Source: Candidatus Saccharimonadota bacterium (lineage in GTDB: Bacteria; Patescibacteriota; Saccharimonadia; Saccharimonadales; Saccharimonadaceae). Taken from it: a stretch of 64,000 nucleotides of DNA. Within the stretch, counting starts at the first letter, position 1; every line of letters starts with the position of its first letter. Made by a program: the position numbers and the translations under genes. The stretch is from assembly GCA_017405265.1 (NCBI GenBank), contig JAFRAS010000007.1:3524-67523 (forward strand), given 5' to 3'. Under the pieces are notes generated by a model. It saw nothing but the letters and a program-made list of their open reading frames with translations, made no database searches and had not been told where the DNA came from. Shown piece by piece: positions 1-62,273 of this stretch.

Positions 1-416
1 ATACGATTGACCTCCCTTACGTCACCAAAAAGCTCAACGAAATCGCCGGGAAAAAGGTCGATTTGAAAAATCTCGCCGCCTTCCTCGCCGAACATCTCCA
101 CTATTCTTGCGTCGGTATCATCGTCGGCGGAAAACTCTACTCCTCCGACCCCACTCATTCTCTCGCTCGTCCCGAGCTCGAAGCTCTCCGCGCCCTCCCC
201 TCGCCGAAATCCGGCCTCTGGCAATCTCTTGATCCCGCGAAGCTCTCGCCCGTTTTTGAACAAGCCGGCCTGACCGCCGTCGCCGAGTTGAAAACTCCAG
301 ACGGTCGTCGCGTGGCACAACTTCTCGTGGGTACCCCCTTGTCGAAGAGAAAGTCCGAAAAAAACCTTGCCGACCTCGAAATGATTTTGAACCTGGTTAC
401 CGCCATCATAAAATAG
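1..416 (+). CDS. 3' part of an unknown protein, possibly a GAF-like C-terminal domain; 5'-truncated by the window
   Basis: Frame is open from position 3 to TAG at 416; codon usage matches neighbouring genes. Confidence 0.55.
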   Translation, partial: TIDLPYVTKKLNEIAGKKVDLKNLAAFLAEHLHYSCVGIIVGGKLYSSDPTHSLARPELEALRALPSPKSGLWQSLDPAKLSPVFEQAGLTAVAELKTPDGRRVAQLLVGTPLSKRKSEKNLADLEMILNLVTAIIK

Positions 417-425
417 GGAACGAAA

Positions 426-1400
426 ATGTCTGCCGCCATGCTCAAAAAAACTCGCCTGACCGTCCTCCTCTCTTTGAATGCAGCCGCGATTTTGATTGCC
501 GGCATCCTGATTGCCTCCGCCCTCGGCTTTAATATCGGTGAATTCCACGTCGTCGCCTCTCGCACCGACGAAGTTGACACCGAACTCATCGCCGACGGCG
601 CCGATCTCGAAGCCGCCTCGACTGACAAGTCCGCCATCCACGATTCCACTGGCAGCGGTGGCATTATCTCTTCTGACTTTTCCATTTCCTCCGGCACCCG
701 CACCTGGATTTCGACCGACCCCGTGAATTTCGGCGAACTCTGGAATGAAAATGAAGTGACGATTTACCGCTCCGCCGACATTGACCTCTGTGCCGGTGGC
801 GGTCTTTCGGGTCTTGGCGCCATGTATTGGCAATCGAGCAATCATTCCGTCATCTCGAATTTCTACTCCGGCGCCCGCACCTGGCTCGGCTTTAATAACG
901 AAACTTGTCGTTTCCCGATTGTCGAAAACGTAGGTGACACCGTCGTGACCGCCGGCACTTACGACGGTTCTCGTCGCGATTCCATCACCGTCCACGTCAT
1001 CGACATCCCCGTCGAGGAGTGGAAACGCGAGATTCTGACCCTGACGAACCAAATCCGCGTCGAAAACGGCCTCCCGACTCTCGTCTGGGGGACGACTTGC
1101 GAAAAAGCCGCCCAACTCCGCGCCGAAGAAATTGTCTCTGTCTATTCCCATACTCGCCCCGACGGCTCGCCCTGGTCCACTGTTTGCGAAATCCCCTCGA
1201 CCGGCGGCTCCTCCGGCGAGAACTTAATGGCAGGAAACGCCGCCCCCTCCCCCGAAACCGTCGTCGCCGCCTGGGTGAACTCGAAAGACCACCTCGAGAA
1301 TATCTTAAACCCCGACTTCACCCACCTCGCCGTCGGCCTCGTCTTCGACCCTTCCTCGAAACTGAAGATTTATTGGTCTGAGTTCTTCTCAACTTACTAA
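426..1400 (+). CDS. Membrane-anchored CAP/SCP-domain protein
   Basis: N-terminal TM helix; C-terminal CAP motifs LTNQIRVENGL, SHTRPDG, GENL, WVNSKDHLENIL. Confidence 0.85.
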   Translation: MSAAMLKKTRLTVLLSLNAAAILIAGILIASALGFNIGEFHVVASRTDEVDTELIADGADLEAASTDKSAIHDSTGSGGIISSDFSISSGTRTWISTDPVNFGELWNENEVTIYRSADIDLCAGGGLSGLGAMYWQSSNHSVISNFYSGARTWLGFNNETCRFPIVENVGDTVVTAGTYDGSRRDSITVHVIDIPVEEWKREILTLTNQIRVENGLPTLVWGTTCEKAAQLRAEEIVSVYSHTRPDGSPWSTVCEIPSTGGSSGENLMAGNAAPSPETVVAAWVNSKDHLENILNPDFTHLAVGLVFDPSSKLKIYWSEFFSTY

Positions 1401-1422
1401 TTTTATGATATAATGTGCCTAT

Positions 1423-1498
1423 GGGGTAGTAGCTCATCTGGTAGAGCGCAGCATTCGCATTGCTGAGGTGGGGAGTTCGAGTCTCCCCTACTCCACCA
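1423..1498 (+). tRNA. tRNA-Ala(CGC)
   Basis: Acceptor GGGGTAG/CTACTCC with G3:U70, anticodon arm CAGCA-TTCGCAT-TGCTG, TTCGA T-loop, encoded CCA; TGATATAAT upstream. Confidence 0.97.
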
Positions 1499-1507
1499 CA
1501 AACAACG

Positions 1508-1532
1508 GCGACGCTAACGCGTCGCGCTTTTT
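1508..1532 (+). terminator. Terminator-like hairpin after tRNA-Ala
   Basis: GCGACGC-TAAC-GCGTCGC followed by a T-run; same stem follows tRNA-Glu. Confidence 0.7.
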
Positions 1533-1578
1533 GTTTTCAACAAAAAGCGTGTTTCGCGAAGCGAAACACCGTTGTTTG

Positions 1579-1721
1579 TGGAAGGGCGCGAAGCGATACT
1601 TCTTTTCCTTCGGAAAAGAAGTTAGAGCGAGCGACCTACCACAAAATACTCAATTTTTTGGAAGGGCGCGAAGCGATACTTCTTTTCCTTCGGAAAAGAA
1701 GTTAGAGCGAGCGACCTACCA
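1579..1721. repeat. Two identical 63-bp structured direct repeats (1579-1641, 1659-1721), family D
   Basis: TGGAAGGGCGCGAAGCGATAC-hairpin-GTTAGAGCGAGCGACCTACCA, period 80 bp; third copy at 53583. Confidence 0.9.
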
Positions 1722-1729
1722 TGAAAAGG

Positions 1730-1764
1730 GAAGCTCCGAGAAAAAGTAGTTTTCTCTGCGCTTC
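1730..1764. repeat. Internally deleted remnant of palindrome family A
   Basis: GAAGCTCCGAGAAAA joined to AGTAGTTTTCTCTGCGCTTC matches the two ends of the 50227-50392 element. Confidence 0.7.
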
Positions 1765-1781
1765 TTTAAAAGGTCTCGCAA

Positions 1782-1947
1782 GGGAAGTTCTTAAAACTCG
1801 CTTTTCTGCAGTTATAAAAAATAATCATTTAAAAATTTCTTGAAACAGGTCGAGTACGTGATAGTCCACGGCGCAGACCTGCCTTGAAAGAAATTTTTAA
1901 ATAGATTATTTTTTATAGGCAAAGAAAAAGAGTTTTAAGAACTTCCC
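1782..1947. repeat. 166-bp imperfect palindrome, family A (MITE/REP-like)
   Basis: GGGAAGTTCTTAAAACTC...GAGTTTTAAGAACTTCCC with pairing continuing to the centre. Confidence 0.9.
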
Positions 1948-1960
1948 AAACAACACCTTA

Positions 1961-1989
1961 TTGACAAAATCTCTACTTTGTGCTATAAT
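1961..1989 (+). promoter_or_regulatory. Consensus sigma70 promoter
   Basis: TTGACA-17bp-TATAAT with extended TG. Confidence 0.85.
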
Positions 1990-2039
1990 AGAGACATATA
2001 TTGGTTCCCGAGTGAGCCCGCACCTTAAAGGAGGAAAAT

Positions 2040-2198
2040 ATGAAAACTATTTTAGAGACCCTCGCCAACATTCTTCTGTTCATTTTTATCTGTATTCTCT
2101 ACGTCATCATCTACCCGCTCAGCCTCATCGAAGACCTCATCTACAAGAAGAAATCCCGCGCATCCGAAAAAGCCGAATACTACCACCGCTATCTTTGA
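2040..2198 (+). CDS. 52-aa single-TM peptide (not in the ORF track), type I toxin-like
   Basis: MKTILETLANILLFIFICILYVIIYPLSLIEDLIYKKKSRASEKAEYYHRYL; own promoter, SD AAAGGAGG, terminator. Confidence 0.8.
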   Translation: MKTILETLANILLFIFICILYVIIYPLSLIEDLIYKKKSRASEKAEYYHRYL

Positions 2199-2208
2199 GT
2201 CCTCCTCT

Positions 2209-2231
2209 GCCCCGCCCCGGCGGGGCTTTTT
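2209..2231 (+). terminator. Intrinsic terminator
   Basis: GCCCCGC-CCCG-GCGGGGC-TTTTT. Confidence 0.8.
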
Positions 2232-2339
2232 ATTGCACCCAATAGTTGCTGGCGTTTTTCTCCCGCCGCGCCTATAATCGCGAAAGAAAGGAGGACGAAA
2301 AAATAGATTTACGTTATAATAATTTCAAGGAACTCATGT

Positions 2340-2936
2340 ATGAAATTCAAGGATAATCTCCGAAAAATCCGCACCGCCGCCCATTTTTCGCAAGAAAAAT
2401 TGGCCGAGAGAATGTCCGTATCTCGCCAAACCATCACCAAATGGGAGAACGGCGCGAGTCTTCCGAGCACGGAACACATCTTGAAGCTCGCCGAGGTTCT
2501 TTCTTGTACTTTTGACGAGCTCGTTCTCGGCGAAAAAGTAAGCAATATCAGTACAAAGAAGCCGCCTATGCTAAAAACGCTTTTTACGGCAACTGCTCTC
2601 ATCACGCTGAGTCTCATTTTTGCCTTCGGTCTATTCCGCCTAAGCTTTAATCGCGATAGTCTCGACCGCGCCAAATTGGCGACCTTTGGCGCCTTAGCCG
2701 AAGATTTTGTCGCGAGTACCGACCTTCTCCCCGAAACCGCCGAGAAGAAAATCGTCGGCTACGGTATCTCTGCCGAAGATGGCGCTTTTTACATCAAATG
2801 CGACCTGAAGGACGCCGACGGCCACTGCTCCGCCATCATCTATTTTTGCAAAAACGCCGACGGCTATTTTTACCGTTGCGAGCTCCTTACTGACCCCGAC
2901 TTTCGCCCGAGCGGCACTTATTATCAACTTGTCTAA
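2340..2936 (+). CDS. XRE/Cro-family HTH regulator with TM helix and C-terminal domain
   Basis: LRKIR..FSQEKLAERMSVSRQTITKWENG..P motif; hydrophobic segment ~aa 80-100. Confidence 0.88.
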   Translation: MKFKDNLRKIRTAAHFSQEKLAERMSVSRQTITKWENGASLPSTEHILKLAEVLSCTFDELVLGEKVSNISTKKPPMLKTLFTATALITLSLIFAFGLFRLSFNRDSLDRAKLATFGALAEDFVASTDLLPETAEKKIVGYGISAEDGAFYIKCDLKDADGHCSAIIYFCKNADGYFYRCELLTDPDFRPSGTYYQLV

Positions 2937-2945
2937 AGGAATTTT

Positions 2946-3596
2946 ATGAAAAAAGCCCTACTTGTTATAAGCATAATAATTTTTACGCTTACCGTTATAG
3001 CTTTAATCGCGAGCGCTCCGAAGCCAGACGAAAACTTTTCGGCCGACTCGATTATCGAAGCGTCGAGTAGAACCGGCAATCTCCCCGAAAAAATCATCGG
3101 CGACCCCGACCTTGCCACATTGATAATCTACGAATATGCCGATTATGCCTGCCCGCACTGCTCGGATTTCAACGACGAGATGAACGCTCTCCTTGAAAAA
3201 TATGGCGACCGCCTCGCCTTAGTTTTTCGTAGCTACGACCTCGGACTTTCCAAAAATAGCCAATCTGCCTCCCGCGCCGCCACCGCCGCCGAGATTCAAG
3301 GCTGTTGGAAGGAATATAAAGACCTGCTTTTCAAACACCAATCTGAATGGGTTTACGCCGACAATAAAACCCTGAACGAATTATTACTTAAATATTTCGA
3401 GCGTGCCTCGAGCGGCGCCGGCGACACCGAAAAATTCAAGAATGACATGAAAAGCTCCGAGGTGAAAAAGCGTGTAGATTTTGAACAAAAACTAGGTAAA
3501 AGCATAAACCTCAAAGGCACCCCCACCTTCCGCGCCAACGGCGAAGACTTGCCCCTCGAAACCCTCTCCTCTACCATCGAAAGCCTAATGAAATAG
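2946..3596 (+). CDS. DsbA-family thiol-disulfide oxidoreductase
   Basis: EYADYACPHC and GTPTF cis-Pro loop; N-terminal anchor. Confidence 0.92.
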   Translation: MKKALLVISIIIFTLTVIALIASAPKPDENFSADSIIEASSRTGNLPEKIIGDPDLATLIIYEYADYACPHCSDFNDEMNALLEKYGDRLALVFRSYDLGLSKNSQSASRAATAAEIQGCWKEYKDLLFKHQSEWVYADNKTLNELLLKYFERASSGAGDTEKFKNDMKSSEVKKRVDFEQKLGKSINLKGTPTFRANGEDLPLETLSSTIESLMK

Positions 3597-7559: not shown

Positions 7560-9008
7560 TTATATATTATTATTCGGGTTTTGTATAGGTGGATTTTGCC
7601 TCATCTGCCCTGGCGGCGCCGTCGGCGCAATCGGAACGCTCGGCGCTCCCGGCACACCCGGAGCCATCACCTGAGGCGCCGTCGGCGCATTCACCATTCC
7701 CGCCGGCATCACCGGCACCGCCATCTGTTGCCCATTCGGCACCACCGGCTGCGCCATCACGTTCGTCGTTCTCGCTGCAATCGACTCAATCATATCTTGG
7801 CTCTGCTCCGCTACTCGCCGCTTTTCATATTCGTCCGGCGTCAGCCTCGGCAGGGAAAGATAGAACGTTGACCCCTCCCCGAGCATCGACTCCGCCCAAA
7901 CCTTCCCGCCCATCGACTCAGCTCGGAGTTTCACGATATACAGCCCGAGCCCCGTGCCCCCAATCGTCCGCGTGTCCGAATTGTCCGCGCGATAAAACTT
8001 CTGGAACACGTGCGCGAGGTCGTCCTGCGAAATCCCAATCCCCGAATCCGTCACGTTAATCAGCACCCTGTCCCCGTCCCCAAGCAAATTCACCCACACC
8101 GACCCCCCAGCCTTCGTGTATTTAATCGCATTCTCGATATAATTCGCCATAATTTCGGATAAAAAGTTCACGTCCACATTACTATATAATATCTGTTCCA
8201 CCCTCTGCCCCTTCCCACCGGCCCCGAACCCATACTTCAACCCCTTTTCTTCGCATTTATGCTGATAGCCGTCCGCAATCTGTTTCACTACCGTCGAAAT
8301 GTCTGTCGCGCGCATCTTCGGCTTCATCCGCCCGTCGCTCAGCTTCGTCGTATCGAGCAAATCCTGGAACAATTTCCCGAGATGTTGCGACGATTCGTGC
8401 GCCTGTGTAAGATATTTTCGCGCCCTGTCGTCAATCGTTGCCGTCTGCGGATTCATCGCGAGACCGAGGAACCCCTCAATCGACGCCACTGGCGTTCGCA
8501 TCTCGTGCGACGCCGTCGAAACAAACTCCGCCTGTTCATTTTCCTCCGCGAGCTCCCGCGTAATGTCCCGAAAAGTTACGATTTTATACCCATGCATCCC
8601 CTCTGTCGGGCTAATCACGAGCGCAATCGGCGTCCTCTTGTCCCCCGCCGAAACGAGCATCAGCGTCCGGTCTTGAATAATTTCATTCTGGTGCAAAGCC
8701 GCCTGAATCGGCGACTCCTCCGGGCTAATCGACTGCCCATTTTTATCCGCGAGTAGCACAATTCTCCACGCTTCCGCCCCAATCACCTCCTCCGGTCGAA
8801 AACCGGTGAGCGTCATCCCCGCCGGATTCATATAACGAATTATCCCGCGCCCGTCCATCATCATCACTCCCTCATGAATAGACTTCAGCGCCGTCATCGC
8901 CATCTCGGCGGCCTGGTCGCGCTCGGTCGGCTCGACAAACTCAATCCCCGACGCAATCACGCCTCCGTTATATCCGCTAACTTTTTGCTTACGTTTAAAT
9001 AGGCCCAT
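7560..9008 (-). CDS. PAS-domain sensor histidine kinase
   Basis: H-box ASHEMRTP, ENAIKYT, DSGIGI, GGTGLGL. Confidence 0.93.
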   Translation of the reverse strand: MGLFKRKQKVSGYNGGVIASGIEFVEPTERDQAAEMAMTALKSIHEGVMMMDGRGIIRYMNPAGMTLTGFRPEEVIGAEAWRIVLLADKNGQSISPEESPIQAALHQNEIIQDRTLMLVSAGDKRTPIALVISPTEGMHGYKIVTFRDITRELAEENEQAEFVSTASHEMRTPVASIEGFLGLAMNPQTATIDDRARKYLTQAHESSQHLGKLFQDLLDTTKLSDGRMKPKMRATDISTVVKQIADGYQHKCEEKGLKYGFGAGGKGQRVEQILYSNVDVNFLSEIMANYIENAIKYTKAGGSVWVNLLGDGDRVLINVTDSGIGISQDDLAHVFQKFYRADNSDTRTIGGTGLGLYIVKLRAESMGGKVWAESMLGEGSTFYLSLPRLTPDEYEKRRVAEQSQDMIESIAARTTNVMAQPVVPNGQQMAVPVMPAGMVNAPTAPQVMAPGVPGAPSVPIAPTAPPGQMRQNPPIQNPNNNI

Positions 9009-9084
9009 GCTTTTCCGTTTACATTTTTTCTAGCTTATGCTAAAATTGTATCACAAATTTTAAAACTTGTGGTAATATATTTGT

Positions 9085-10926
9085 ATGAATAAAGACGTTC
9101 TCTATGTAAAATCCGACGATGACATGCGTACTATCGCTGGAAAAATTCGCTCCCTCGCGAAAAAAGTCGTAGCCATCGTTCCTCCCGCCGCCTCCCCCGA
9201 ATTATTCTACTCTTCCGCCAACTTGAAAATGCTCATGCGCGTCGCCAACGCCGCCGACAAAATCGCCGTCGTCATCACCGAAGACCCCGCCATCATCCGC
9301 GCCGCCGTCTCCGCCCGCCTCCCCCTCTCCGCCTCCCTCCACTCAAAACCCTACCTCCCGACCTTAGACAACGTGGATGATCTGACTCGCGAAGAGAAAG
9401 GCCTCCCGAGACAACGCGGAGGTCACGACCGAGCATTAGCGCCGGACGCCCGTGACGACGGGCCGTCCGGACGCGTGTCGCGGGAGGCTCTTTCTCGTAG
9501 CGAGTCGGCACCAGACGCCGCTGACGCCTTCACTTCCGCCCCAGTCGCCGCCGAAGATATTTTCGAAAAACCCGAGAAAAAAATCGAAGTAAAAGAGGAA
9601 ACTTCCGAAGAGGAGCCCAACGAACCCGAAGAAGAAGATGATGAACCCGACGACGACCACCTCGAAGCCGCCGACAAAAAGGTTGACCGCGCCGAGAAAA
9701 AACTGAAAAGCGAAGACCGTCGCGAAGAAAAGAAACGTCGCAAAAAAATTATCCTGATTGCCCTCATCGCCGCCTCCATCGTCGGCCTTCTCGTCCTGCT
9801 CCTCGTCTGGGCCTTCGCCATCGCCCCCGCCGCCGACATTTCGATTACGATAAAAACCACTTCCGCGAACTTCGCCGAGAACGTCTCCTTCGTGAACGAA
9901 CTCTCTGCTGAAGACGCCGAAGCCGGGAAGTTCTACCTCGACCCTCTGACTTATTCCGAGACCAAAGAAGCCACCTTCGAAGCCACCGGAAAAAAAGACA
10001 TCGGTGACCGCGCCCGCGGCAGCCTCACTCTTTACTACACCTTCCGCGCCAACAGCGCCGGCGAATTCACCATCGGCACCACCGTCAGCATCCCCGCCGG
10101 CTCGACCTTCGCCCAGGACGGTAAAAATTACTACACCGACTCCGACGCCGAGATAAAACACGATGTCAGTATTTGCCCCGTCGATAACAACTTCCTCGCC
10201 AACGGCTGCACCCAATCCGTCACCGTCCGCATCTCCTCCGCCGACATTGGCGAAACTTACAACGCGAACGCTAACGCCGTCTGGACCTCCGGAGTCACCG
10301 GCATCACTGCGAAAAACCCCGAAGCCATCTCTGGCGGTTTCGCGAAAACCATCACCGTCCTCTCCCAGGCCGACGTTGATCGCGCCACCGCCGCCCTCAT
10401 CCCCTCCTCGAAGTCCGACATCCTTCCCCTCCTCGAGGACGGTATGAAAAAGAACTACATCTTAATCGACGATTCCTACTCTTACGAAGCTGGCGAGATC
10501 GAACTGAGTAAAACTCAAGACGAAGAAATCAAAGACGGCGAAAAAGTCACCGCAAAACGTAAATTCGACTACAAAATTAACACCCTGGACTCCTCCGCCC
10601 TCGAAAAATTCGTCATTTCCTCGGTGAAAAACCTCGGCGCCGACCAAAAAATCTACGCCGTCACTACCCCCTTCATCCAAAGATACATCGTCAGCGACTC
10701 CGGCATCACTGGCCGTCTCTCTGCCACTTATAAATACGGTCCCGAAGTCACCTCCGACCAAGTCCTCGAAATGGCCAAGGGCCAAAAAATCGGCGACCTC
10801 CGCTCCCGCCTGAAATCCGTCAACGGCGTCGATACCGTGACAATCAACCCCTCCTTCCCCTGGGTCACCGCCGTCCCGAACGATTCGAACAAAATAACCA
10901 TTAACATAGAGGTGAAAGAACAATGA
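9085..10926 (+). CDS. Bitopic membrane protein with baseplate-J-like extracellular region
   Basis: Acidic cytoplasmic linker, one TM, IPAGSTF..G..Y and ISGG motifs; contains a palindromic insert. Confidence 0.65.
   Translation: MNKDVLYVKSDDDMRTIAGKIRSLAKKVVAIVPPAASPELFYSSANLKMLMRVANAADKIAVVITEDPAIIRAAVSARLPLSASLHSKPYLPTLDNVDDLTREEKGLPRQRGGHDRALAPDARDDGPSGRVSREALSRSESAPDAADAFTSAPVAAEDIFEKPEKKIEVKEETSEEEPNEPEEEDDEPDDDHLEAADKKVDRAEKKLKSEDRREEKKRRKKIILIALIAASIVGLLVLLLVWAFAIAPAADISITIKTTSANFAENVSFVNELSAEDAEAGKFYLDPLTYSETKEATFEATGKKDIGDRARGSLTLYYTFRANSAGEFTIGTTVSIPAGSTFAQDGKNYYTDSDAEIKHDVSICPVDNNFLANGCTQSVTVRISSADIGETYNANANAVWTSGVTGITAKNPEAISGGFAKTITVLSQADVDRATAALIPSSKSDILPLLEDGMKKNYILIDDSYSYEAGEIELSKTQDEEIKDGEKVTAKRKFDYKINTLDSSALEKFVISSVKNLGADQKIYAVTTPFIQRYIVSDSGITGRLSATYKYGPEVTSDQVLEMAKGQKIGDLRSRLKSVNGVDTVTINPSFPWVTAVPNDSNKITINIEVKEQ
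9382..9508. repeat. Intragenic coding palindrome, family B
   Basis: Arms CTGACTCGC..GAGAAAGGCCTCCCGAGACA / TGTCGCGGGAGGCTCTTTCTC..GCGAGTCGG; core 61/70 identical to the gatA copy. Confidence 0.92.
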
Positions 10927-12416
10927 AACTCATCGCACTTGACGTCGGCGAAAAACGCATCGGCGTCGCCAAAGCCGACACATCAGTTTTAATCGCCGTC
11001 CCGGTCGGCACTTTCAATGTTGACGGCACCGAATTCGACCAAATCTCTCGCCTCTCCCGGGTTTATGGCTCCACTTTTTTCGTCATCGGCCTCCCTCGTA
11101 ACAGTAAAGGCGAAGAAACCGCCCAGTCCGCCTACTCCCGCAACTTCGCGAAACAACTGAAAGAAAAAATCCCCGGCGCGAAAGTCACCTTCGAAGACGA
11201 ATCTCTGACTTCCGTGATGGCCGAAGACCGCCTAAAAAACAGACCCCACAAAAAGGGCGACATTGACGCCGAAGCCGCGACGATTATTCTCCAGACTTTC
11301 CTTGAGCGCCTCGCGAAAAAAACCGGCACGAAAATCGACAACCCCGAGAATAAAAAACACATCGGAAAATTCTTCGTCGCTCTGATTTCAATTCTCTTAG
11401 TCCTCGGTGTGGCCGCGAGCGGCGCTTTTCTCTGGTATAACAGCTCCCTCTCTCCTGTTGACACTTCTTGTGGCGACGCCTGTAGTAAAGTTGAATTTAG
11501 TGTGAAAGACGGCGAATCGACCGCCGACATCGCGACGAACCTCGAATCCGCGAAACTCGTAAAATCCGCCCTCTCTTTCCGCATTTTGACCCACCTGAAA
11601 TTCTCTGGCGAAACCTATAAATCCGGCACTTATTATTTCTCCACCAACCAATCCCCCGAAGACATCGCGAAAGCCATGGTCGAGGGCGCCGACGCCACCA
11701 ACGTTTTCTGGTTTACTCTTCTTCCCGGTGGTACTATCATGGACGCGAAAAAGGCGTTCAAATCCGCCGGCTACTCCGACGAAGCCATTGAAAAAGGCTT
11801 CTCTGCTGACTTCTCCGGTCGCATGACCACCGAGGGAAAGCCCGAAAACTCCTCTCTCGAGGGCTATCTTTACGGCGAAACTTACCAATTCTACTCTGGC
11901 GAATCCGTCGAAAACATCCTCTCCTCTTATCTCGACGGTCTCGCCATCGTCGTCGCGAAAAATAACCTGAAAGAAAAATATGCGGAGCACGGCCTGAGCC
12001 TTTACGAGGGCATTGTCTTGGCCTCCATCGTCCAAAAAGAAGCCCACTCTGCCGATATGCCGACCGTCGCGAGCGTCTTCTTGAATCGCCTAAAATATGG
12101 CATCCCTCTGGGCTCCGACGTCACCGTAAAATACGCCCTCGACCTCGTCGACCCGAACCGCGAAGTTTACAACAACAACGCCGACGCTCTCGCTATCGAC
12201 TCCTGTTATAACACCCGAAGAAACACCGGTCTGCCTTGTGGCCCCATCTCGAGCCCCGGCCTTTCCGCTCTCCTCGCTGTCGCCTCCCCGGCCGACACTG
12301 ATTATCTCTATTTCCTGACCGGCGACGATGGCGCCATGTATTACGCCCACACCGAAGCCGAACATGAAGCGAACATCCGCGACCACTGCCAAGTTGCTTG
12401 TGCCGCTGCCTTGTGA
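10923..12416 (+). CDS. mltG: YqgF/RuvX fused to endolytic transglycosylase MltG
   Basis: N-terminal ALDVGEKRIGVA, DESLTS, IDAEAATIILQ; C-terminal LEGYLYGETY, LASIVQKEA, YNT..GLP.GPI. Confidence 0.9.
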   Translation: MKLIALDVGEKRIGVAKADTSVLIAVPVGTFNVDGTEFDQISRLSRVYGSTFFVIGLPRNSKGEETAQSAYSRNFAKQLKEKIPGAKVTFEDESLTSVMAEDRLKNRPHKKGDIDAEAATIILQTFLERLAKKTGTKIDNPENKKHIGKFFVALISILLVLGVAASGAFLWYNSSLSPVDTSCGDACSKVEFSVKDGESTADIATNLESAKLVKSALSFRILTHLKFSGETYKSGTYYFSTNQSPEDIAKAMVEGADATNVFWFTLLPGGTIMDAKKAFKSAGYSDEAIEKGFSADFSGRMTTEGKPENSSLEGYLYGETYQFYSGESVENILSSYLDGLAIVVAKNNLKEKYAEHGLSLYEGIVLASIVQKEAHSADMPTVASVFLNRLKYGIPLGSDVTVKYALDLVDPNREVYNNNADALAIDSCYNTRRNTGLPCGPISSPGLSALLAVASPADTDYLYFLTGDDGAMYYAHTEAEHEANIRDHCQVACAAAL

Positions 12417-12431
12417 TATAATAGATAAGTT

Positions 12432-13526
12432 ATGATGGCGAAAAAACGTCTGACAAAACACCTTTTTCTGCAAATTTTCACCTATCTTGCCGTCTCTGCA
12501 GTCGTCTTTTTGCTAATCTTCTTCGGCTCCCTTGAAAAACGCAACGCCACCTCTGTTTTGAACCTGAAAAAGAGCTCTTATGAGGACGTTTCCGTTGACG
12601 AAATCTCCGAACTTTACCTCGCCGCGACCGTCGCCGAGTCCGCCCGCCTCGACTCCGCCCCGACCATCAACACCGATTATTATTCCGCCATTTCCCAATA
12701 CAACATTAACCAGACCTCGAGTTCCCCCTCGAAAATCGAAAAACCGACCATCACTGACACCTCTTCCTATTCTCGCGGTGTCGTCCCCCACGTCGTCGCC
12801 GAGGGCGAAACTCTGGACTCGATTATCGCGAACTCCGGCGTCGCCGGACTCACCTCCGACCAAGTCCGCTGGTCGAACAACATGAAAAACTCGAATGTCA
12901 GCGTCGGCCAAACTCTCTACCTCCCCTCCGTCGCCGGCATCGTTTACACCGTGAAAGACGGCGACACTGTTGACTCTCTGGCGAGCAAATACGGCTCCGA
13001 CGCCTCCTCTATTGTCACCTATAACGACCTCGAAACCGACCAAACTCTCGAAAAAGGCCAAAGAATCATCATCGCCTCCGGCGTCCTCCCCGAAACCGAG
13101 CGCCCCGAATACGTCCCGCCCGCCCCGACCCCGAGATACAACTACTACGTCTCCTACTCCTCTGGTAACCCTTACCCCCGTGGCCAATGCACCTTCTGGT
13201 CCTGGCAATGGCGCAACGACAACATGGGTCCCCAATACGCCATCCCCTCGAACCTTGGCAACGCCCGCTACTGGGACGACAACACTCGCGGCTCTTACGT
13301 CGTCGATAAAAACCCGAGCTACGGCGCCGTCTTCGTCGACGAAGGCGGCTGGTACGGCCACGTCGGTATCGTCACCTCTGTGAACGCCGACGGCTCCATC
13401 GACACCTCCGAAATGAACGTTTATGTCGCCGGCTGTGGTTGGAACATCGTCTGCTCTCGCCACTTCGAGCAGAGCACCTGGTCCGCCTGGTCCTTCATCC
13501 ACCAAAAACAGGGAACCGACCCCTGA
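12432..13526 (+). CDS. LysM x2 + CHAP peptidoglycan hydrolase
   Basis: Two LysM repeats; NPYPRGQCT, GNARYW, YGHVGIV, SEMN. Confidence 0.92.
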   Translation: MMAKKRLTKHLFLQIFTYLAVSAVVFLLIFFGSLEKRNATSVLNLKKSSYEDVSVDEISELYLAATVAESARLDSAPTINTDYYSAISQYNINQTSSSPSKIEKPTITDTSSYSRGVVPHVVAEGETLDSIIANSGVAGLTSDQVRWSNNMKNSNVSVGQTLYLPSVAGIVYTVKDGDTVDSLASKYGSDASSIVTYNDLETDQTLEKGQRIIIASGVLPETERPEYVPPAPTPRYNYYVSYSSGNPYPRGQCTFWSWQWRNDNMGPQYAIPSNLGNARYWDDNTRGSYVVDKNPSYGAVFVDEGGWYGHVGIVTSVNADGSIDTSEMNVYVAGCGWNIVCSRHFEQSTWSAWSFIHQKQGTDP

Positions 13527-13569: not shown

Positions 13570-14853
13570 ATGTTTATCGATCAGGCGAAAGTGTATGTAA
13601 AAGCAGGCAAAGGTGGCAACGGTGCCATCTCTTTTCGCCGTGAAATCTATATCCCGAAAGGCGGCCCGGACGGTGGCGACGGTGGCCGTGGTGGCTCGGT
13701 AATTTTCAAGGCTGACAACAATGCTGACACTCTGGAAGATTTCCGCTACAATCCGAAACTCATCGCCGAAGACGGTCGCCCCGGCTCCGGCACTCGCTCT
13801 TCTGGTCGCTCCGGCGCCGACCTGATCGTGAAAGTCCCCCTCGGTACCAGCGTTTTGAGAGACGGGAAACTCATCGCCGACCTCGTGAAAAACGGCGAAA
13901 CTGCCGTGATCGCGAAGGGCGGCTCCGGTGGCTACGGCAACGCCCATTTCAAGTCCTCAACCCGCCAGACCCCGACAATTGCCGAACTCGGCGAACCGGG
14001 CGAAGAATTCGAAGCGACTCTCGAATTGAAACTCATCGCCGACGTTGGTCTTGTCGGCCTCCCGAACGCCGGAAAATCCACTTTTCTCTCCGTTGTCTCT
14101 TCCGCCCGCCCGAAAATCGCGAATTACCCCTTCACCACTCTCGTCCCGATGCTCGGTGTCGCAAAAGTTGACGACCACGAGCTCTTAATCGCCGACATCC
14201 CCGGCCTCATCGAAGGCGCGAGCGAGGGAAAGGGCCTCGGCCACGATTTTCTCCGCCACGTTTCCCGTACCGCTGTCATTCTCCACCTCATCGACGTTTA
14301 TAACGACGACGCCGGCCAGGCCTACAAAACGATTAGAACCGAGCTGAAAAAATACGGCGACCTCGCCAAAAAGCCCGAAATTATCGCCCTGACGAAATGC
14401 GAAGGCCTCTCCGAGGATATTCTTGCCCTCCAGATTAAATCCATCAAAAAGCATGCGCGAAACGCCCGCATTTTCACTATCTCCTCCCCCGCCCACCAGG
14501 GAATCACCGAACTCCTCCGCGAATTATATACAACCGTTCGCGACGTTCGGGTCCTGCCTCCTGAAGATTCTCATGATGCCCGGGTGGTGTCGCCGGAGGG
14601 GTCCCAAAAATCGCCTCGCAATGCAATAGATGCTCGGGTGACTCCGTCGGAAAGGCTCCCAAAATCGGCCCGCAACGAAGTGAGGACACGATTTTGGGAA
14701 GGAGACGGAGGCAGGACCCGAGCATCGATATCTTTTTCGGGAGACGGAGGCAGGACCCGAACGCCAGAAAGCGCTTTGCCTACCATTTCTCTGAAGCCTG
14801 CCAAAAAACACCACCGCGAACGCTACTCACTTTACCCCGACGAAGACGAATAA
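13570..14853 (+). CDS. obgE: Obg/CgtA GTPase
   Basis: Gly-rich Obg fold, GLPNAGKST, YPFTT, DIPG; atypical C-terminal tail. Confidence 0.97.
   Translation: MFIDQAKVYVKAGKGGNGAISFRREIYIPKGGPDGGDGGRGGSVIFKADNNADTLEDFRYNPKLIAEDGRPGSGTRSSGRSGADLIVKVPLGTSVLRDGKLIADLVKNGETAVIAKGGSGGYGNAHFKSSTRQTPTIAELGEPGEEFEATLELKLIADVGLVGLPNAGKSTFLSVVSSARPKIANYPFTTLVPMLGVAKVDDHELLIADIPGLIEGASEGKGLGHDFLRHVSRTAVILHLIDVYNDDAGQAYKTIRTELKKYGDLAKKPEIIALTKCEGLSEDILALQIKSIKKHARNARIFTISSPAHQGITELLRELYTTVRDVRVLPPEDSHDARVVSPEGSQKSPRNAIDARVTPSERLPKSARNEVRTRFWEGDGGRTRASISFSGDGGRTRTPESALPTISLKPAKKHHRERYSLYPDEDE
14544..14763. repeat. Nested palindromic/direct-repeat insert in obg 3' end, family C
   Basis: 18-bp perfect IR 14544-14561/14746-14763; inner IR 14629-14639/14716-14726; 21-bp DR at 14701 and 14740. 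Confidence 0.9.
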
Positions 14854-14982
14854 TTTCCGGCGCTTACCCCTGTATTCCCGAACACTTCGGGAATATTTTT
14901 TGCTTTTGTCAACCCCAATCCCCGCCACAATTCCCGAAAAAGTCAATATTGACAATTATTTTGCTCGTGCTAAAATAGAGTT

Positions 14983-15072
14983 ACAATTTGAGCATGAACT
15001 GACGTTGAGAGATGCTCAAATTATGTGGAAAAGAAACAGAGATGGCGTGGGTAAACCGCGCCGTTTCATTTT
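14983..15072 (+). ncRNA. Candidate small RNA
   Basis: TTGACA(14949)-16bp-TAAAAT promoter, hairpin AATTTGAGCAT/ATGCTCAAATT, then a terminator-like hairpin; no credible ORF. Confidence 0.45.
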
Positions 15073-15102
15073 CCATTCAATCCCGCGTGATATAATATTT
15101 TT

Positions 15103-17775
15103 ATGAATAGATTAGACTCCTACCACGAATTTATCAAAAAATACCCCGATTTCACCTTCGAATCTTATTCTTACGACCTAAAAACCGACCATCTCGACCT
15201 CTCTTTTTGTTTTAAAATCGACAATCTCGCCGAATTTCGCCCCTCTTGGCGCTTTCCGCGTAGCAAAAACACCGAAATTGACGAAAAAGTCTTAAACCGC
15301 CTCGTCCTGAACCTCGGTCTCGCCGAGTCGATGTCCTACTGGAAAGCGACCTGCTCCCCGAATTTTCACGTCGAAGCCGGCCCCGTCGCCGACATTTCTT
15401 GGTGGTCTAAACAATTCAAAAACGGTCTCGCCGAATTTTTCTACCGAAACGGACTAATAAATAAGACAAAGCCCATCAATTTTATCGCCGACTCCGACAG
15501 CTCTCACCGCCCGTCCCCGAGCCGCAACCAAGATTCCGTCCTCGTCCCCGTCGGCGGAGGAAAAGATTCTGTCGTTTCTCTGGAGCTCCTAAAAACCACC
15601 AAAAAATCCATCCACCCCTTTGTTATTAACCCGAAAGACGTCCACGAAAACGTCCTGAGTATCGCCGGCCTCGAGAAAAACCTCCTTGCCGCCGAGCGCA
15701 AAATCGACCCGAAGCTCCTCGAGCTGAACGACCGAGGCTTCTTAAACGGCCACACTCCCTTCTCTCTCCTCGTCGCCTTCGCGAGCTCCCTCGCTGCTTA
15801 CCTTAACGGCATCGAAGACATCGCTCTCTCGAACGAGTCCTCCGCCAACGAAAAAACCGCCGAAATCGCCGGCCAAAGCGTCAACCACCAATATTCCAAA
15901 TCCCTCGAATTCGAAAAAGATTTCCGCGCGTACATCGGCTCCGCCACCGGCGCGACCGTGAACTATTTCTCACTCCTTCGCCCCCTCGAAGACACCGCCA
16001 TCGCCGCCCTCTTCGCCGAGCACAAGGAATATTTTGACGCTTTCCGCTCCTGCAACCTCGGCTCGAAAGAATCCCCCTGGGTCTGGTGCAAAAATTGCCC
16101 GAAATGCCTCTTTACGAACCTCATCTTGGCCCCCTTCACCACTCTCGAGGAAAGAAAACGCATCTTCGGTGCCGACCTCTTCGCCGACGCCTCGCTTCTG
16201 CCCATTTTCAAACAACTCATCGGTGACGCCCCCGAAAAGCCCTTCGAATGTGTCGGCACCGTCGCCGAGTCCTACCTCGCCGCCTACGCCGCCTTAAAAA
16301 AACACGAATATAAATCCCTCCCGCCCCTCCTCGAATATTTCGAAAAAACCCACACCGGCGAGGGTGACGACGAAAGAAAAATCCCCTACTTCGCCCTCCA
16401 CCTCTCCTCTTTCGCCCCCGAGCACAACCTCCCCTTTGAATACGAAAAACTGATGAACTCCGCCTACCCCACCCTCTTTCGCGCCTACTTAAAATACAAT
16501 ATCTCAGGCAAATCCGTCTGTGTCCTGGGTCTCGGTCGCGAGGGAAAATCCACTTTAAAAATGCTCGAATCTTTGAAAAATTATAAATCCCTGACCGTCG
16601 CCGACGACAATTTCCCGAAAGATTTCGACAAAAAGGCTTACAAAACCTGCGACATTAAAACCGCTTTAAAAAATCACTACGACCTCTACTTAAAATCCCC
16701 CGGCGTCGCCTCCGATTTCTGGACCAACTCCGAAACCAACCTTTTCCTCGAATTTTACCGCAAGCGCGTCATCGGCATCACCGGCACGAAAGGAAAATCC
16801 ACCACCGCCTCCCTGATGTATCACGTCTTAAAAGAAACGGGGAAAGACGTCGTCCTGGGCGGCAACATCGGCGTCCCTGTTTTCGACCTCGTCGATAAAA
16901 TCGACTCCGACACCATCATCGTCCTCGAACTCTCCTGTCACCAACTCGAATATCTCGACGCCTCCCCGAATATCGCCGTATTAACCAACCTCTATTCCGA
17001 CCACCTCGACCGCTACAAAACCGTCGAAAAATATCACGAAGTAAAAAGCCACATCTATAAATATCAAACCGAAGACAGCGGCTTTTTCATCACCGAAGAT
17101 GTTAACCGAAACGAGCTCGGCCCGAACGTTAACTACCTCCTGGTCCCCACTCCCCCGAAAGAAATCATGAAATACACGAAGCTGACCGGCGACCACTACC
17201 GCGCCGACCTCGGCCTCGTTGATGCCGTCGTTTCCGTCCTCGGCATTCCCATGAAAGAATGCCTAGACGCCTTCAAATCCTTCAAACCCCTCCCCCACCG
17301 CCTCGAGCACGTTTTGAAAAAAGACGGCGTCGATTATTACGACGACTCCATCTCCACCACCCCCGAAACTGCCATCGCCGCCTGCGAAGCCGTCGAATCC
17401 CGCAACTTGAAGTACCTTTTGGTCGGCGGTCTCGACCGCGGCATCGATTACGAGCCTCTCGAAGATTACCTCTTGAATCACTCCGAAGTCGAGCCGATTT
17501 TCTTCTCCGACGCCGGGCGGCGCATCTTTGAGGAAATGTACGAAAAAACCGGCAACATCTACGCTCACGCCGACAACCTCCCCGTCGCCCTCCGCATCGC
17601 CGTCGCCTCCGCCGGCCGCGGCTCCGCCGTCATCCTCTCCCCCGCCGCCGCCTCTTATAACGAATTCAAAAATTTCGAAGAACGCGGCGACTTCTTCCAA
17701 AAATTCGTCCGCGAAACCAACAAATCCGACCTCCCGCCCGACGAATATTCTCTGTCCTACGAACCTGAATTCTGA
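15103..17775 (+). CDS. murL-murD: Fusion of MurL-like UDP-MurNAc-L-Ala-L-Glu epimerase and MurD-type ligase
   Basis: N half: GGGKDS, NGHTPFS, SNESSANE, NHQYSKS, FRSCN, WCKNCPKC, KPFECVG; C half: GLGREG, GITGTKGKSTT, ELS, DHLDRY, HRLE, SPAAASYNEFKNFEERG. Confidence 0.88.
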   Translation: MNRLDSYHEFIKKYPDFTFESYSYDLKTDHLDLSFCFKIDNLAEFRPSWRFPRSKNTEIDEKVLNRLVLNLGLAESMSYWKATCSPNFHVEAGPVADISWWSKQFKNGLAEFFYRNGLINKTKPINFIADSDSSHRPSPSRNQDSVLVPVGGGKDSVVSLELLKTTKKSIHPFVINPKDVHENVLSIAGLEKNLLAAERKIDPKLLELNDRGFLNGHTPFSLLVAFASSLAAYLNGIEDIALSNESSANEKTAEIAGQSVNHQYSKSLEFEKDFRAYIGSATGATVNYFSLLRPLEDTAIAALFAEHKEYFDAFRSCNLGSKESPWVWCKNCPKCLFTNLILAPFTTLEERKRIFGADLFADASLLPIFKQLIGDAPEKPFECVGTVAESYLAAYAALKKHEYKSLPPLLEYFEKTHTGEGDDERKIPYFALHLSSFAPEHNLPFEYEKLMNSAYPTLFRAYLKYNISGKSVCVLGLGREGKSTLKMLESLKNYKSLTVADDNFPKDFDKKAYKTCDIKTALKNHYDLYLKSPGVASDFWTNSETNLFLEFYRKRVIGITGTKGKSTTASLMYHVLKETGKDVVLGGNIGVPVFDLVDKIDSDTIIVLELSCHQLEYLDASPNIAVLTNLYSDHLDRYKTVEKYHEVKSHIYKYQTEDSGFFITEDVNRNELGPNVNYLLVPTPPKEIMKYTKLTGDHYRADLGLVDAVVSVLGIPMKECLDAFKSFKPLPHRLEHVLKKDGVDYYDDSISTTPETAIAACEAVESRNLKYLLVGGLDRGIDYEPLEDYLLNHSEVEPIFFSDAGRRIFEEMYEKTGNIYAHADNLPVALRIAVASAGRGSAVILSPAAASYNEFKNFEERGDFFQKFVRETNKSDLPPDEYSLSYEPEF

Positions 17776-32303: not shown

Positions 32304-34719
32304 TCTGAAACGCACTATTCTTCTGGCCTTAATTTTTGCGATTTTCTTAACTTCCTCCTTCGATGTCGCCCTGACTCTCGAACTCTTCGGCTTCACCTTC
32401 CGCCTGACCCAACTTCTGTCAATTGTTTTAATGTTAATAATTGGAATTCAAATTATTATCAAACGTCGCGTCGAAAAGCCTCTGGGTCTAAGATATCTTA
32501 TTTTCTGGATAATCCTATTATTACTCTTTACGTTTAATACAATTTTACCGAAAACGAACTTAGCTTACGACGCCTGGGCAGTTTTCAACGTTGCCCTCGT
32601 CTTCGCCTTCGTGAACCTCCCGCGCGAAAAACTCCTTTTCCACGAAGTTTTGCGTCTCTATATCTTCTCCTTCCTCGTCATGGCGCTTTTTGGCATCCTC
32701 GAATTCATCTTGGGTGCTGCCGGCACCAACTTCCCCTACATTACTCAGTGGTGGAGCGCGACCCTCCCCCGCGTGAACGGCCTCTGTTTTGAGCCGTCCT
32801 ATTTCTCGTCTTACATGCTGATCGGCTGGGCGCTGACTCGCTACCTGATTCACAAAAAATACCCCTTCGCCCGCCACCCCTATCTCATTCTTGTCGCTAT
32901 CGTCCTCTCACTCGCCCTCTCTTCTTCTCGGATGGGTCTTCTCGTGATGACTATTTTTGAACTCATCTTCGGTGTTGTCTCTGTCATCCGCACGAAAAAA
33001 CCGCTCCTCCCGCTTGCGAGTTTCGTCATAACCGTCGCCCTCGCCTTCGGTCTGCCTTACCTTAACGCACGTATCTTCACACCTTCTGGCGGCGAATCCG
33101 CCGAGGAATCTTTCTCTCGCATCATGGACGGCACTGGCATCGGCGGCACCTCCTCGCACTCCTCCGCCGAGCGTATCGACTCCCTGAAGGACACCCTCGC
33201 CGTCTTCCTCGACTCCCCGATTTTGGGTCGCGGTTTTGGCGGCACTTTCGTCGAAATTGCCAAAAAACACGACCTCGACCCCGCGAAAATCTCTCTGCAG
33301 GATGAAGCAGGCAGTATGAACATCACCGCCGAAATTCTCGCCGCCACCGGCATTTTCGGCTTTATCGCCCTTCTTTTCTATCTCGCCGCTCTCTATTCCT
33401 CTCCTCGTCGCCTTTCCGCCGCGCATAAAACCGCCAGCAATTCTCTCGCTCCTTTGAAAGGTCTCCTCTTCGCCCTCCTCATCACCCTCATCATGTTCCA
33501 ACTGAACCAGAACCCCCTCCGTCCCTACATCTGGCTACTTATTGCGATGGTTTCCTACGCTTACGCGACTTTGAATGCCACTCTCCCCCCGAAAAAACAC
33601 CCGAAAATCGCCGTTGACGCCCGAATGCTAAAAATGTCCGGCATCGGCACCTATCTTAAAAATCTCGTTAAAAATGGTTGTTACGACCTCACTCTCGGCG
33701 CCCCCGAGCCGACCGGACTAAAAAACATCCCCTATAACGCTAATATATACGGCATAAAAGAACAGCTAAAATTCCCATATCTTAAACTCTGGCGCGAAAA
33801 CCCCGCCCTCCTCCACTGCCCGCACTACAACATTCCGCTTTTCTACTCCGGAACTCTCGTCACGACCGTCCACGACCTGACCCACCTAAAATACCCCGAA
33901 TTTTTACCTAACAAATTCGGCTACCTCTACGCCCGTTTCATGCTCGGCCGCGCCGTAAAAAAATCCACTCTCGTCCTCACCGTCTCCGAGAACACGAAAA
34001 AAGATATTCTCGAGTATTACCACGTCAACCCTGACAAGATTATTGTGATTCCGAACGGCGTCTCGATAGATTTTAAGCGCTTGCGCAAGGAAGGAACTTT
34101 TGCGACAACGTGCGACGACGTGGAGCACATTAGCGACGAGCCGCGTAACGACGCGCGCGAGGAGCATGTCGCAAAAGTTTCTTCCTTGGGTAGCAAGCGC
34201 GTATTATTGTATGTCGGGAATCTGAAGCCGCACAAGAATCTCAAAAATCTCTTGAAGGCCTTCGCAAAACTCGAAAACCGCGACGATTTGACCTTGCGTC
34301 TCGTCGGCAAATCTTTCGATAATTACAACATTCTCGACAAATTGCCAAAAAAGTTAGGAATTGAGAAAAATCTCGAAATCCTGGGCGAAAAATCCTCCGA
34401 CGAACTCGTAAAAATCTATAATGAAGCCGACCTCTTCATCTTCCCGTCTCTCTACGAAGGCTTCGGCCTCCCCATTCTCGAATCTCTCCGCTGCGGCACT
34501 CCCGTCGTCTGCTCGAACACTTCCTCCCTTCCCGAAGTCGGCGCTGACCTCGTCTCCTACTTCGACCCCACCTCCCCCTCCGACATGGCGCGCGTCATCT
34601 CCGCCCACCTCGACGACAAACTCACCTTCGACTACCAAAAAGCCAAAAAACACTGCGACGCCTTCTCTTGGAAATCTTCCGTTGAGAAAACAAAATCTGC
34701 TTTTAGAGAAGCGCTTTAG
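32290..34719 (+). CDS. O-antigen ligase/polymerase-like membrane domain fused to GT4 glycosyltransferase
   Basis: About 12 TM with R.NGL.FEPS, SSR.G, PILGRGFG; then DARM..SGIGTY, PHKN, YEGFGLPILE. Confidence 0.85.
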   Translation: MKSFNLKRTILLALIFAIFLTSSFDVALTLELFGFTFRLTQLLSIVLMLIIGIQIIIKRRVEKPLGLRYLIFWIILLLLFTFNTILPKTNLAYDAWAVFNVALVFAFVNLPREKLLFHEVLRLYIFSFLVMALFGILEFILGAAGTNFPYITQWWSATLPRVNGLCFEPSYFSSYMLIGWALTRYLIHKKYPFARHPYLILVAIVLSLALSSSRMGLLVMTIFELIFGVVSVIRTKKPLLPLASFVITVALAFGLPYLNARIFTPSGGESAEESFSRIMDGTGIGGTSSHSSAERIDSLKDTLAVFLDSPILGRGFGGTFVEIAKKHDLDPAKISLQDEAGSMNITAEILAATGIFGFIALLFYLAALYSSPRRLSAAHKTASNSLAPLKGLLFALLITLIMFQLNQNPLRPYIWLLIAMVSYAYATLNATLPPKKHPKIAVDARMLKMSGIGTYLKNLVKNGCYDLTLGAPEPTGLKNIPYNANIYGIKEQLKFPYLKLWRENPALLHCPHYNIPLFYSGTLVTTVHDLTHLKYPEFLPNKFGYLYARFMLGRAVKKSTLVLTVSENTKKDILEYYHVNPDKIIVIPNGVSIDFKRLRKEGTFATTCDDVEHISDEPRNDAREEHVAKVSSLGSKRVLLYVGNLKPHKNLKNLLKAFAKLENRDDLTLRLVGKSFDNYNILDKLPKKLGIEKNLEILGEKSSDELVKIYNEADLFIFPSLYEGFGLPILESLRCGTPVVCSNTSSLPEVGADLVSYFDPTSPSDMARVISAHLDDKLTFDYQKAKKHCDAFSWKSSVEKTKSAFREAL
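34077..34200. repeat. Intragenic coding palindrome, divergent family B copy
   Basis: CAAGGAAGGAACTTTTGCGACA / TGTCGCAAAAGTTTCTTCCTTG arms; core GACAACG..CATTAGCG..CGT(A/G)ACGACG..TGTC. Confidence 0.85.

Positions 34720-60834: not shown

Positions 60835-62273
<1,439 letters not shown>

Follow-up and report, generated by a model that had tools for sequence, protein, structure and literature searches.

In Candidatus Saccharimonadota, the gene for a baseplate-J-like membrane protein (P0001) is interrupted, without loss of reading frame, by a 125-nt hairpin at positions 9382-9508 of the window, the 64,000-nt stretch of contig JAFRAS010000007.1 (assembly GCA_017405265.1) analyzed here. We find that this hairpin belongs to a repeat family confined to one genus, that orthologs of the gene lack it, and that its outer stem is private to the site while its core is common to the family. 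The reading that we favor, at a probability of about 0.7, is a genus-restricted selfish hairpin repeat resembling the Rickettsia palindromic elements (RPEs), whose stem grows by copying from one arm to the other.

A hairpin repeat with a family-wide core

Three nested inverted repeats (9384-9400/9490-9506, 17 nt, 88%; 9401-9413/9476-9488, 13 nt, 92%; and 9442-9451/9461-9470, 10 nt, 90%) make up one long hairpin. The RNA fold of 9375-9515 has an energy of -87.1 kcal/mol, compared with a mean of -54.7 ± 4.1 kcal/mol for dinucleotide shuffles (z = -7.92), and none of 200 shuffles folded as stably. The palindrome reported by the first-pass annotation is therefore real. Minimum-free-energy folding was unusable for placing the hairpin ends, as it gave spurious pairs with the flanks.

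That annotation had also placed the same core in gatA. BLASTN re-found it there at 61565-61640 with 87% identity, along with four further matches in the 519-kb assembly, and a covariance model (R1) built from the seven copies in this genome (G000) matches both. R1 recovers exactly the seven aligned copies; it scores the copy at 9382-9508, itself a training sequence, at 118.9 bits (E 3.7e-36, model positions 1-123, + strand) and the gatA copy at 112.6 bits (+ strand). A comparison set of 36 copies was assembled from the 7 in G000 and the 29 best matches from other genomes, and an nhmmer profile of these copies matches the present one with E 5.8e-22. Among sampled genomes of the genus, 128 of 151 have R1 matches, for a minimum of more than 1300 copies, and none was found in 119 genomes from 97 other genera of the order.

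The family shares a unit of approximately 90 nt, in which a 13-bp inner stem closes a three-way core; two unpaired motifs of this core, GAGNATTAGCG and the loop GTRRMGAC, are conserved and are both present here (9431-9441 and 9452-9459). RNAalifold of the seven G000 copies yields a long outer stem that closes this core, with 15 of 33 pairs compensated. Long open reading frames (ORFs) contain 22 of the 36 copies, and the host genes checked by Pfam are essential genes for ArgRS, PcrA, LepA, GatA, GatB, LigA, and Obg, and one gene for a methyltransferase.

The variable loop of GatA that precedes a [KR][KR][IV]G motif holds copies in G000 (+), G015 (+), G021 (-), and G100 (-), and is empty in most orthologs; the loop is either a hot spot for insertion or uniquely tolerant of it.

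Orthologs of the host gene lack the element

P0001 has orthologs in 60 of 61 relatives, with 33-38% identity within the genus. A family copy was found in none of 34 orthologous loci, each searched with 1.5 kb of flank, and all 29 orthologs in the protein alignment have a gap opposite the element peptide. The closest database relative, P0002 (591 aa, 81% identical), also lacks the core peptide. The first-pass annotation had named lack of an empty allele together with conservation of the peptide as the pattern that would refute its reading; what we found instead is 34 empty loci and an element-free P0002.

The insertion is fixed in the sampled strains, which come from three studies. Contigs from public runs of two other studies, representing strains 97-99% identical to this one, carry the element at the same site: a 235-nt contig (X7) covers 9318-9552 with 3 differences, and a 795-nt contig (X8) covers 8900-9421 with 13 differences and ends within the core. 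Low or absent read depth elsewhere was not counted as evidence. A search with P0002 over 369 genomes of the genus returned no close relative besides G000, and no related locus was found in metagenome-contig and genome-contig collections. The proposed comparison with empty alleles succeeded in that element-free orthologs exist, but every sampled strain carries the element, and the empty alleles, which differ by at least 19% in protein, are too diverged to fix the exact ends or any target-site duplication.

One outer arm is probably native, the other its inverted copy

Within a copy, the outer 26 nt of the two arms are 84% complementary (36 copies). From copy to copy, 5′ arms agree at only 44% and 3′ arms at only 41% of positions, compared with 25% for shuffled arms and 75% for the core. 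The inner stem (GCCTCCCGAGACA/TGTCGCGGGAGGC) is common to the gatA copy and, as variants, to the whole family. The earlier description of locus-specific arms around a conserved core accordingly holds for the outer 17 bp, which are private to this site, and not for the 13-bp inner stem.

At this site, P0002 has DDATEEE opposite DDLTREE of P0001, and most orthologs in the genus have xxEE at the position aligned to the 5′ outer arm. The residues encoded by the 3′ arm, LSRSES, have no counterpart in orthologs. The match to P0002, the xxEE motif, and the position of the 5′ arm at the end of the N-domain helix lead us to infer, with moderate confidence and at the protein level, that the 5′ arm predates the insertion and that the 3′ arm is its inverted copy.

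The pattern is clearer at other sites. In gatA of G021, the native arm is the one adjoining the conserved LRIG codons, with its complement on the other side. The native residues FATKVANLF in the empty gatB of G000 align with the arm that encodes xLxLVANLF in gatB of G021, G028, and G324. From gatA and gatB, the native arm would seem always to lie 5′ of the core, and such a fixed polarity was considered and dropped: in pcrA (L043) and lepA (L044) the native arm is the 3′ one, on the opposite side of the core, and arm copying therefore has no fixed polarity. Filled genes are longer than their empty G000 counterparts by 25-33 aa (mean 29.6 aa, or 89 nt; n = 7), whereas the hairpins in these genes measure 118-129 nt. 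Part of every stem must therefore occupy gene positions that were already there.

The arms also change together. All differences among three orthologous gatB copies fall at paired positions: in 4-9 pairs both bases have been replaced with pairing kept throughout, in 5-6 a single base has been replaced, and the loops are free of substitutions. The native arms at several sites and the joint change of the gatB arms bear out the suggestion that arms are generated or homogenized at each site.

The gatB locus of G324 (L066) additionally has a partial second copy, made up of an outer arm and the start of a core, approximately 60 nt upstream of the full copy, and gatB of G028 has a different extra segment at that position. 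These extra segments suggest local duplication at the hairpin.

A route by which the stem could grow

We propose that the roughly 90-nt core with its inner stem entered the variable linker of the membrane protein. The outer 17-bp stem would not have been brought by the element; one arm would be native to the gene, and the other would repeat it in inverted form. Template switching during replication at the hairpin is the likely maker of that inverted copy, and the same process may keep both arms matched as they drift. In quasipalindromes, template switching uses the nascent strand as template and shows a strand bias (PMC7202029); in yeast, it homogenizes and expands the arms of inverted repeats (PMC8604942 and PMC13100816). 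Under this proposal the element would bring its host no gain. The copy would survive because its length keeps the frame and it is read in the sole stop-free sense frame, and because the 40-odd extra residues fall in a disordered segment.

Several observations weigh against this account. P0002 is only 22 aa shorter than P0001, not approximately 30, which indicates that the linker holds other indels. The case for a native 5′ arm uses three of six identical residues and a flanking DD, and EE is common in the linker. Neither a contig that skips the element nor a near-identical empty allele was found, with four partial holders examined. No mobilizing enzyme was found among the Y1_Tnp, DDE_Tnp_1, IS110, TnpB-type, and rve domains in 5 genomes or among reverse transcriptases in 151. 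Approximately 17 of 26 alignable copies also have one extra unpaired base, located 12-14 nt beyond the inner stem within otherwise private sequence of the 5′ arm (the copy at 9382-9508 has an extra base in the 3′ arm instead). Passive copying does not explain such a base at a fixed distance, nor the strict conservation of the loop motifs. The invariant loops and the recurrent base suggest that a factor may recognize the folded core.

We tentatively extend the favored reading, at somewhat less than even odds, to a new kind of mobile DNA, in which a folded core of approximately 90 nt would spread in a replication-strand-specific manner without a transposase and recruit neighboring gene sequence into its stem. 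If this is true, each insertion both lengthens an essential protein and recasts part of it, and the extra base and loops mark a recognition factor.

Comparison with a nonautonomous transposon

A nonautonomous transposon of the miniature inverted-repeat transposable element (MITE) type would account for a shared unit of approximately 90 nt bounded by a conserved inverted repeat, for the many dispersed copies, and for the net gain of approximately 89 nt at filled sites. The inner stem would then be the terminal inverted repeat, the transposase would be encoded elsewhere or lost, and the private outer stem would be a later by-product. We consider this unlikely. Termini conserved across the family were not found, given the divergence of the outer 26 nt relative to the core, and no direct repeat flanks the copy at 9382-9508 or that in gatA, although arm conversion could have erased a target duplication. 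Y1_Tnp, DDE_Tnp_1, IS110, and TnpB-type domains were absent from all five genomes searched, four of them rich in copies, and rve was present in one; the Y1 transposase PF01797, of the REP-associated tyrosine transposase (RAYT) type, was among those absent with controls detected. This absence is weak evidence, because metagenome-assembled genomes often lose insertion sequence copies and five Pfam families were searched. A MITE also does not predict the skew-tied orientation described below, save for single-strand transposases, which were not found in the five genomes.

Orientation follows GC skew and not gene direction

Copies inside genes lie in either direction, 10 along the gene and 12 opposite to it. 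Relative to base composition, in contrast, in 29 of the 36 copies it is the same strand of the element that coincides with the locally C-rich strand (binomial p = 3e-4), by a test that is somewhat generous, since a few of the copies are orthologous. The skew is contig-wide in G000 (C2, -0.28; C3, which contains the window, -0.21; C4, +0.24; C7, -0.18), with 5-kb windows reaching -0.41, and its sign is independent of gene direction. Orientation in both senses relative to genes, together with orientation tied to skew, points to a replication-linked process on single-stranded DNA, and not to a function in the transcript.

Coding bases are mostly on the C-rich strand (51.6 kb versus 9.3 kb on C3; 113 kb versus 57 kb on C4). 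The leading strand is usually G-rich. The coding bases run contrary to this rule; if genes prefer the leading strand, then that of G000 is C-rich, the reverse of what is usual.

These data bear directly on whether the element is a structured RNA that acts in the transcript, as a regulatory hairpin, an RNase target, or a ribozyme. The compensated pairs among the seven copies would then reflect selection on RNA, and the very stable fold and conserved unpaired motifs would also fit. We regard this as improbable, since the element occurs in both orientations relative to transcription, its orientation tracks skew on the scale of replication, and its host genes are unrelated. Moreover, Rfam 15 returned nothing at the gathering score in the window except two tRNAs, and up to E 10 the sole match was a chance microRNA at 19 bits (gathering score 89).

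Reverse transcriptases do not track the element

Very improbable, too, is a retro-mobile element, whose core is copied via RNA by a reverse transcriptase of the genus and whose flank is inverted by snap-back synthesis. Reverse transcriptases are known to prime by snap-back, and proteins with an RVT_1 domain occurred in all five genomes first tested. Reverse transcriptases are found in 98 of the 151 genomes of the genus, but the element, at 14-22 copies, occurs without a reverse transcriptase in six genomes (G010, G011, G012, G161, G169, and G247), and a reverse transcriptase occurs without the element in six others (G032, G033, G062, G213, G243, and G301). The link was rejected for this lack of co-occurrence. 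The reverse transcriptases of G000 adjoin genes with Fib_succ_major domains, as in diversity-generating retroelements.

Contig C8 of G000 (locus L100) has two segments, 86-3081 and 13723-17157, with RVT_1 at 1744-3081 (-) and 14753-15937 (+), each near a protein with a Fib_succ_major/FISUMP domain. They look like two diversity-generating-retroelement-like cassettes. A DUF3800 protein is encoded at 12144-13055 of the same locus.

The element peptide lies in a disordered linker

The ORF at 9085-10926 has no stop across the hairpin in the gene frame, and the hairpin is predicted to be read through as an extra peptide of P0001. An AlphaFold2 model of P0001 (56 homologs; mean predicted local distance difference test (pLDDT) score of 81) has a confident N-domain (residues 1-105) that ends in a helix (94-105), a segment with pLDDT below 50 (106-210) at the start of which the element peptide (100-141) lies, a long helix (212-246) holding a hydrophobic stretch (222-246), and a β-rich C-domain. 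The 57 residues after the element peptide (142-198) have a net charge of -19, and a K/R-rich stretch (199-221) directly precedes the hydrophobic helix. The low pLDDT and the charge confirm the disordered, acidic linker of the first reading of this sequence, and its predicted cytoplasmic placement follows from the positive-inside rule.

The gene name also held up. In Foldseek, the best-ranked structures (E 1.6e-7 to 1e-5) were baseplate wedge proteins from four phages (XM1, phi812, A-1(L), and Mu) and from the tailocin diffocin, with TM-scores that are low because the proteins are multi-domain. Among distant homologs of P0001, several have PF04865 and one is named "baseplate J/gp47," and homologs of P0001 are named "Candidatus Saccharibacteria bacterium." A Pfam search of P0001 itself gave no significant match.

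The acidic linker downstream of the element is indel-rich between strains: at 9590-9610, contigs X6 and X8 from goat-gut runs show several small insertions (TTCTT, GA, CC, and others) in a relative. The protein database entry for this ORF is the 483-aa P0003, which starts at a GTG inside the hairpin (window 9475, residue 131); gene callers therefore truncate the gene, and the N-domain is lost.

The first reading of this sequence had noted an orientation and frame shared with gatA. Both copies are indeed on the + strand, and their peptides have 22 of 40 residues in common in the same frame. The shared frame nevertheless carries little weight, as it is largely forced by stop codons: of the other two sense frames, one is closed by a TAG at 9437-9439 (within ATTAGCG) and one by a TGA at 9453-9455 (within the GTGACGAC loop). 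The two sites have a common frame because these conserved stops shut the alternatives, with selection against stops, and 23 of the 36 copies have exactly one open sense frame.

A peptide module of 40 residues, recruited for a linker function and conserved at the protein level, could explain the residues shared with gatA and the fixation of the insertion in strains from three studies, but it is hardly credible, as other sites read this DNA in different frames and antisense, the peptide is absent from all orthologs and lies in a segment predicted to be disordered, and substitutions track base pairing and not codons.

Table 1. Coordinates of the hairpin, its parts, its host gene, and sister copies in the window
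Feature	Position	Strand	Remarks
Whole hairpin copy	9382..9508	+	In the gene frame, predicted residues 100-141 (LTREEKGLPRQRGGHDRALAPDARDDGPSGRVSREALSRSES)
Outer 5′ arm	9384..9400	+	Private to the site; codons LTREEK; end of host helix 94-105; pairs with 9490-9506
Inner stem, 5′ half (GCCTCCCGAGACA)	9401..9413	+	Family-level; common to the gatA copy
Conserved core	9414..9475	+	From alignment and consensus fold of family copies
Small hairpin in core	9421-9430	+	
Joiner GAGCATTAGCG in core	9431-9441	+	Out-of-frame TAG at 9437-9439
GC-rich hairpin in core	9442-9470	+	
Loop GTGACGAC of GC-rich hairpin	9452-9459	+	Out-of-frame TGA at 9453-9455
Inner stem, 3′ half (TGTCGCGGGAGGC)	9476..9488	+	
Outer 3′ arm	9490..9506	+	Probable inverted copy of 9384-9400, 15/17 bases pair; residues LSRSES
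Host gene P0001, 613 aa	9085..10926	+	N-domain 1-105; disordered linker 106-210; membrane helix ~212-246; baseplate-wedge-like ectodomain 250-613
Sister copy in gatA	61540..61660	+	Orientation and frame as at 9382-9508
Divergent sister copy in glycosyltransferase gene	34079..34198	+	R1 score 77.3 bits

Discussion

The family appears to be undescribed: a full-text search, outside of which most subscription journals fall, returned nothing for Saccharibacteria or Patescibacteria that deals with palindromic or MITE-like repeats. With this family, the notion of selfish DNA housed in protein genes, known from Rickettsia, reaches Saccharibacteria, ultra-small gut episymbionts with reduced genomes. 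The pairing of a shared core with a site-private stem that is partly host coding sequence has not been described for bacterial repeats, and through it hairpin-driven template switching would be seen to supply essential proteins steadily with new peptide segments. The copy at 9382-9508 contributes a site in a fast-evolving surface protein outside the housekeeping set, one of the clearer hints as to which arm is ancestral, and a clear disordered context. The practical consequences are that short-read contigs break in the core, that gene callers truncate genes at the element, and that protein alignments carry inserts of 30-40 residues that are not homologous between sites.

RPEs are the closest parallel to the selfish repeat that we favor. 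RPE-1 to RPE-10 (Ogata et al. 2000/2002, summarized in PMC10969869) are ten families of 100-150 bp that are often in frame. They likewise are hairpin repeats of a reduced genome that lie in frame in unrelated, often essential genes and have no known transposase (PMC10969869). The 125-nt palindromic hairpin reported here, with its frame open through the ORF, matches this description, and the likeness is drawn by description only. The differences are that this family occurs in Saccharibacteria, that its outer stem is private and partly host sequence, and that its orientation follows GC skew. MITEs found inside genes (ERIC, BOX, Correia/NEMIS, and QMITE) are similarly short, noncoding repeats with inverted-repeat ends that are occasionally in frame (PMC10969869); they have family-wide terminal inverted repeats and target duplications, whereas the termini here differ and no duplication was seen.

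Two systems with folded single-strand sites offer further parallels. Repetitive extragenic palindromic (REP) sequences and the bacterial interspersed mosaic elements, with their RAYT (Y1) transposases, together with palindromes derived from IS200/IS605, are hairpins recognized as single strands with an orientation tied to the replication strand. REPs, in contrast, are 20-40 nt long and mostly extragenic, and no Y1 transposase was found in the five genomes here. Integron attC sites are recombination sites that owe their identity to a folded single-strand structure and not to sequence; they have extrahelical bases, with which the recurrent one-base bulge may be compared. An attC site conserves its ends and varies its center, and the present family does the reverse.

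For the growth of the stem, the closest known process is quasipalindrome template switching, described in the Ripley model, in Lovett reporters (PMC7202029), and in yeast (PMC8604942 and PMC13100816), where arm copying perfects and lengthens an inverted repeat. What is known of it concerns mutation at single sites and not the life cycle of a dispersed repeat, and it does not account for the spread of the core. This process is replication-linked and strand-biased, and can rewrite coding sequence, all of which matches the behavior that we propose for the outer arms.

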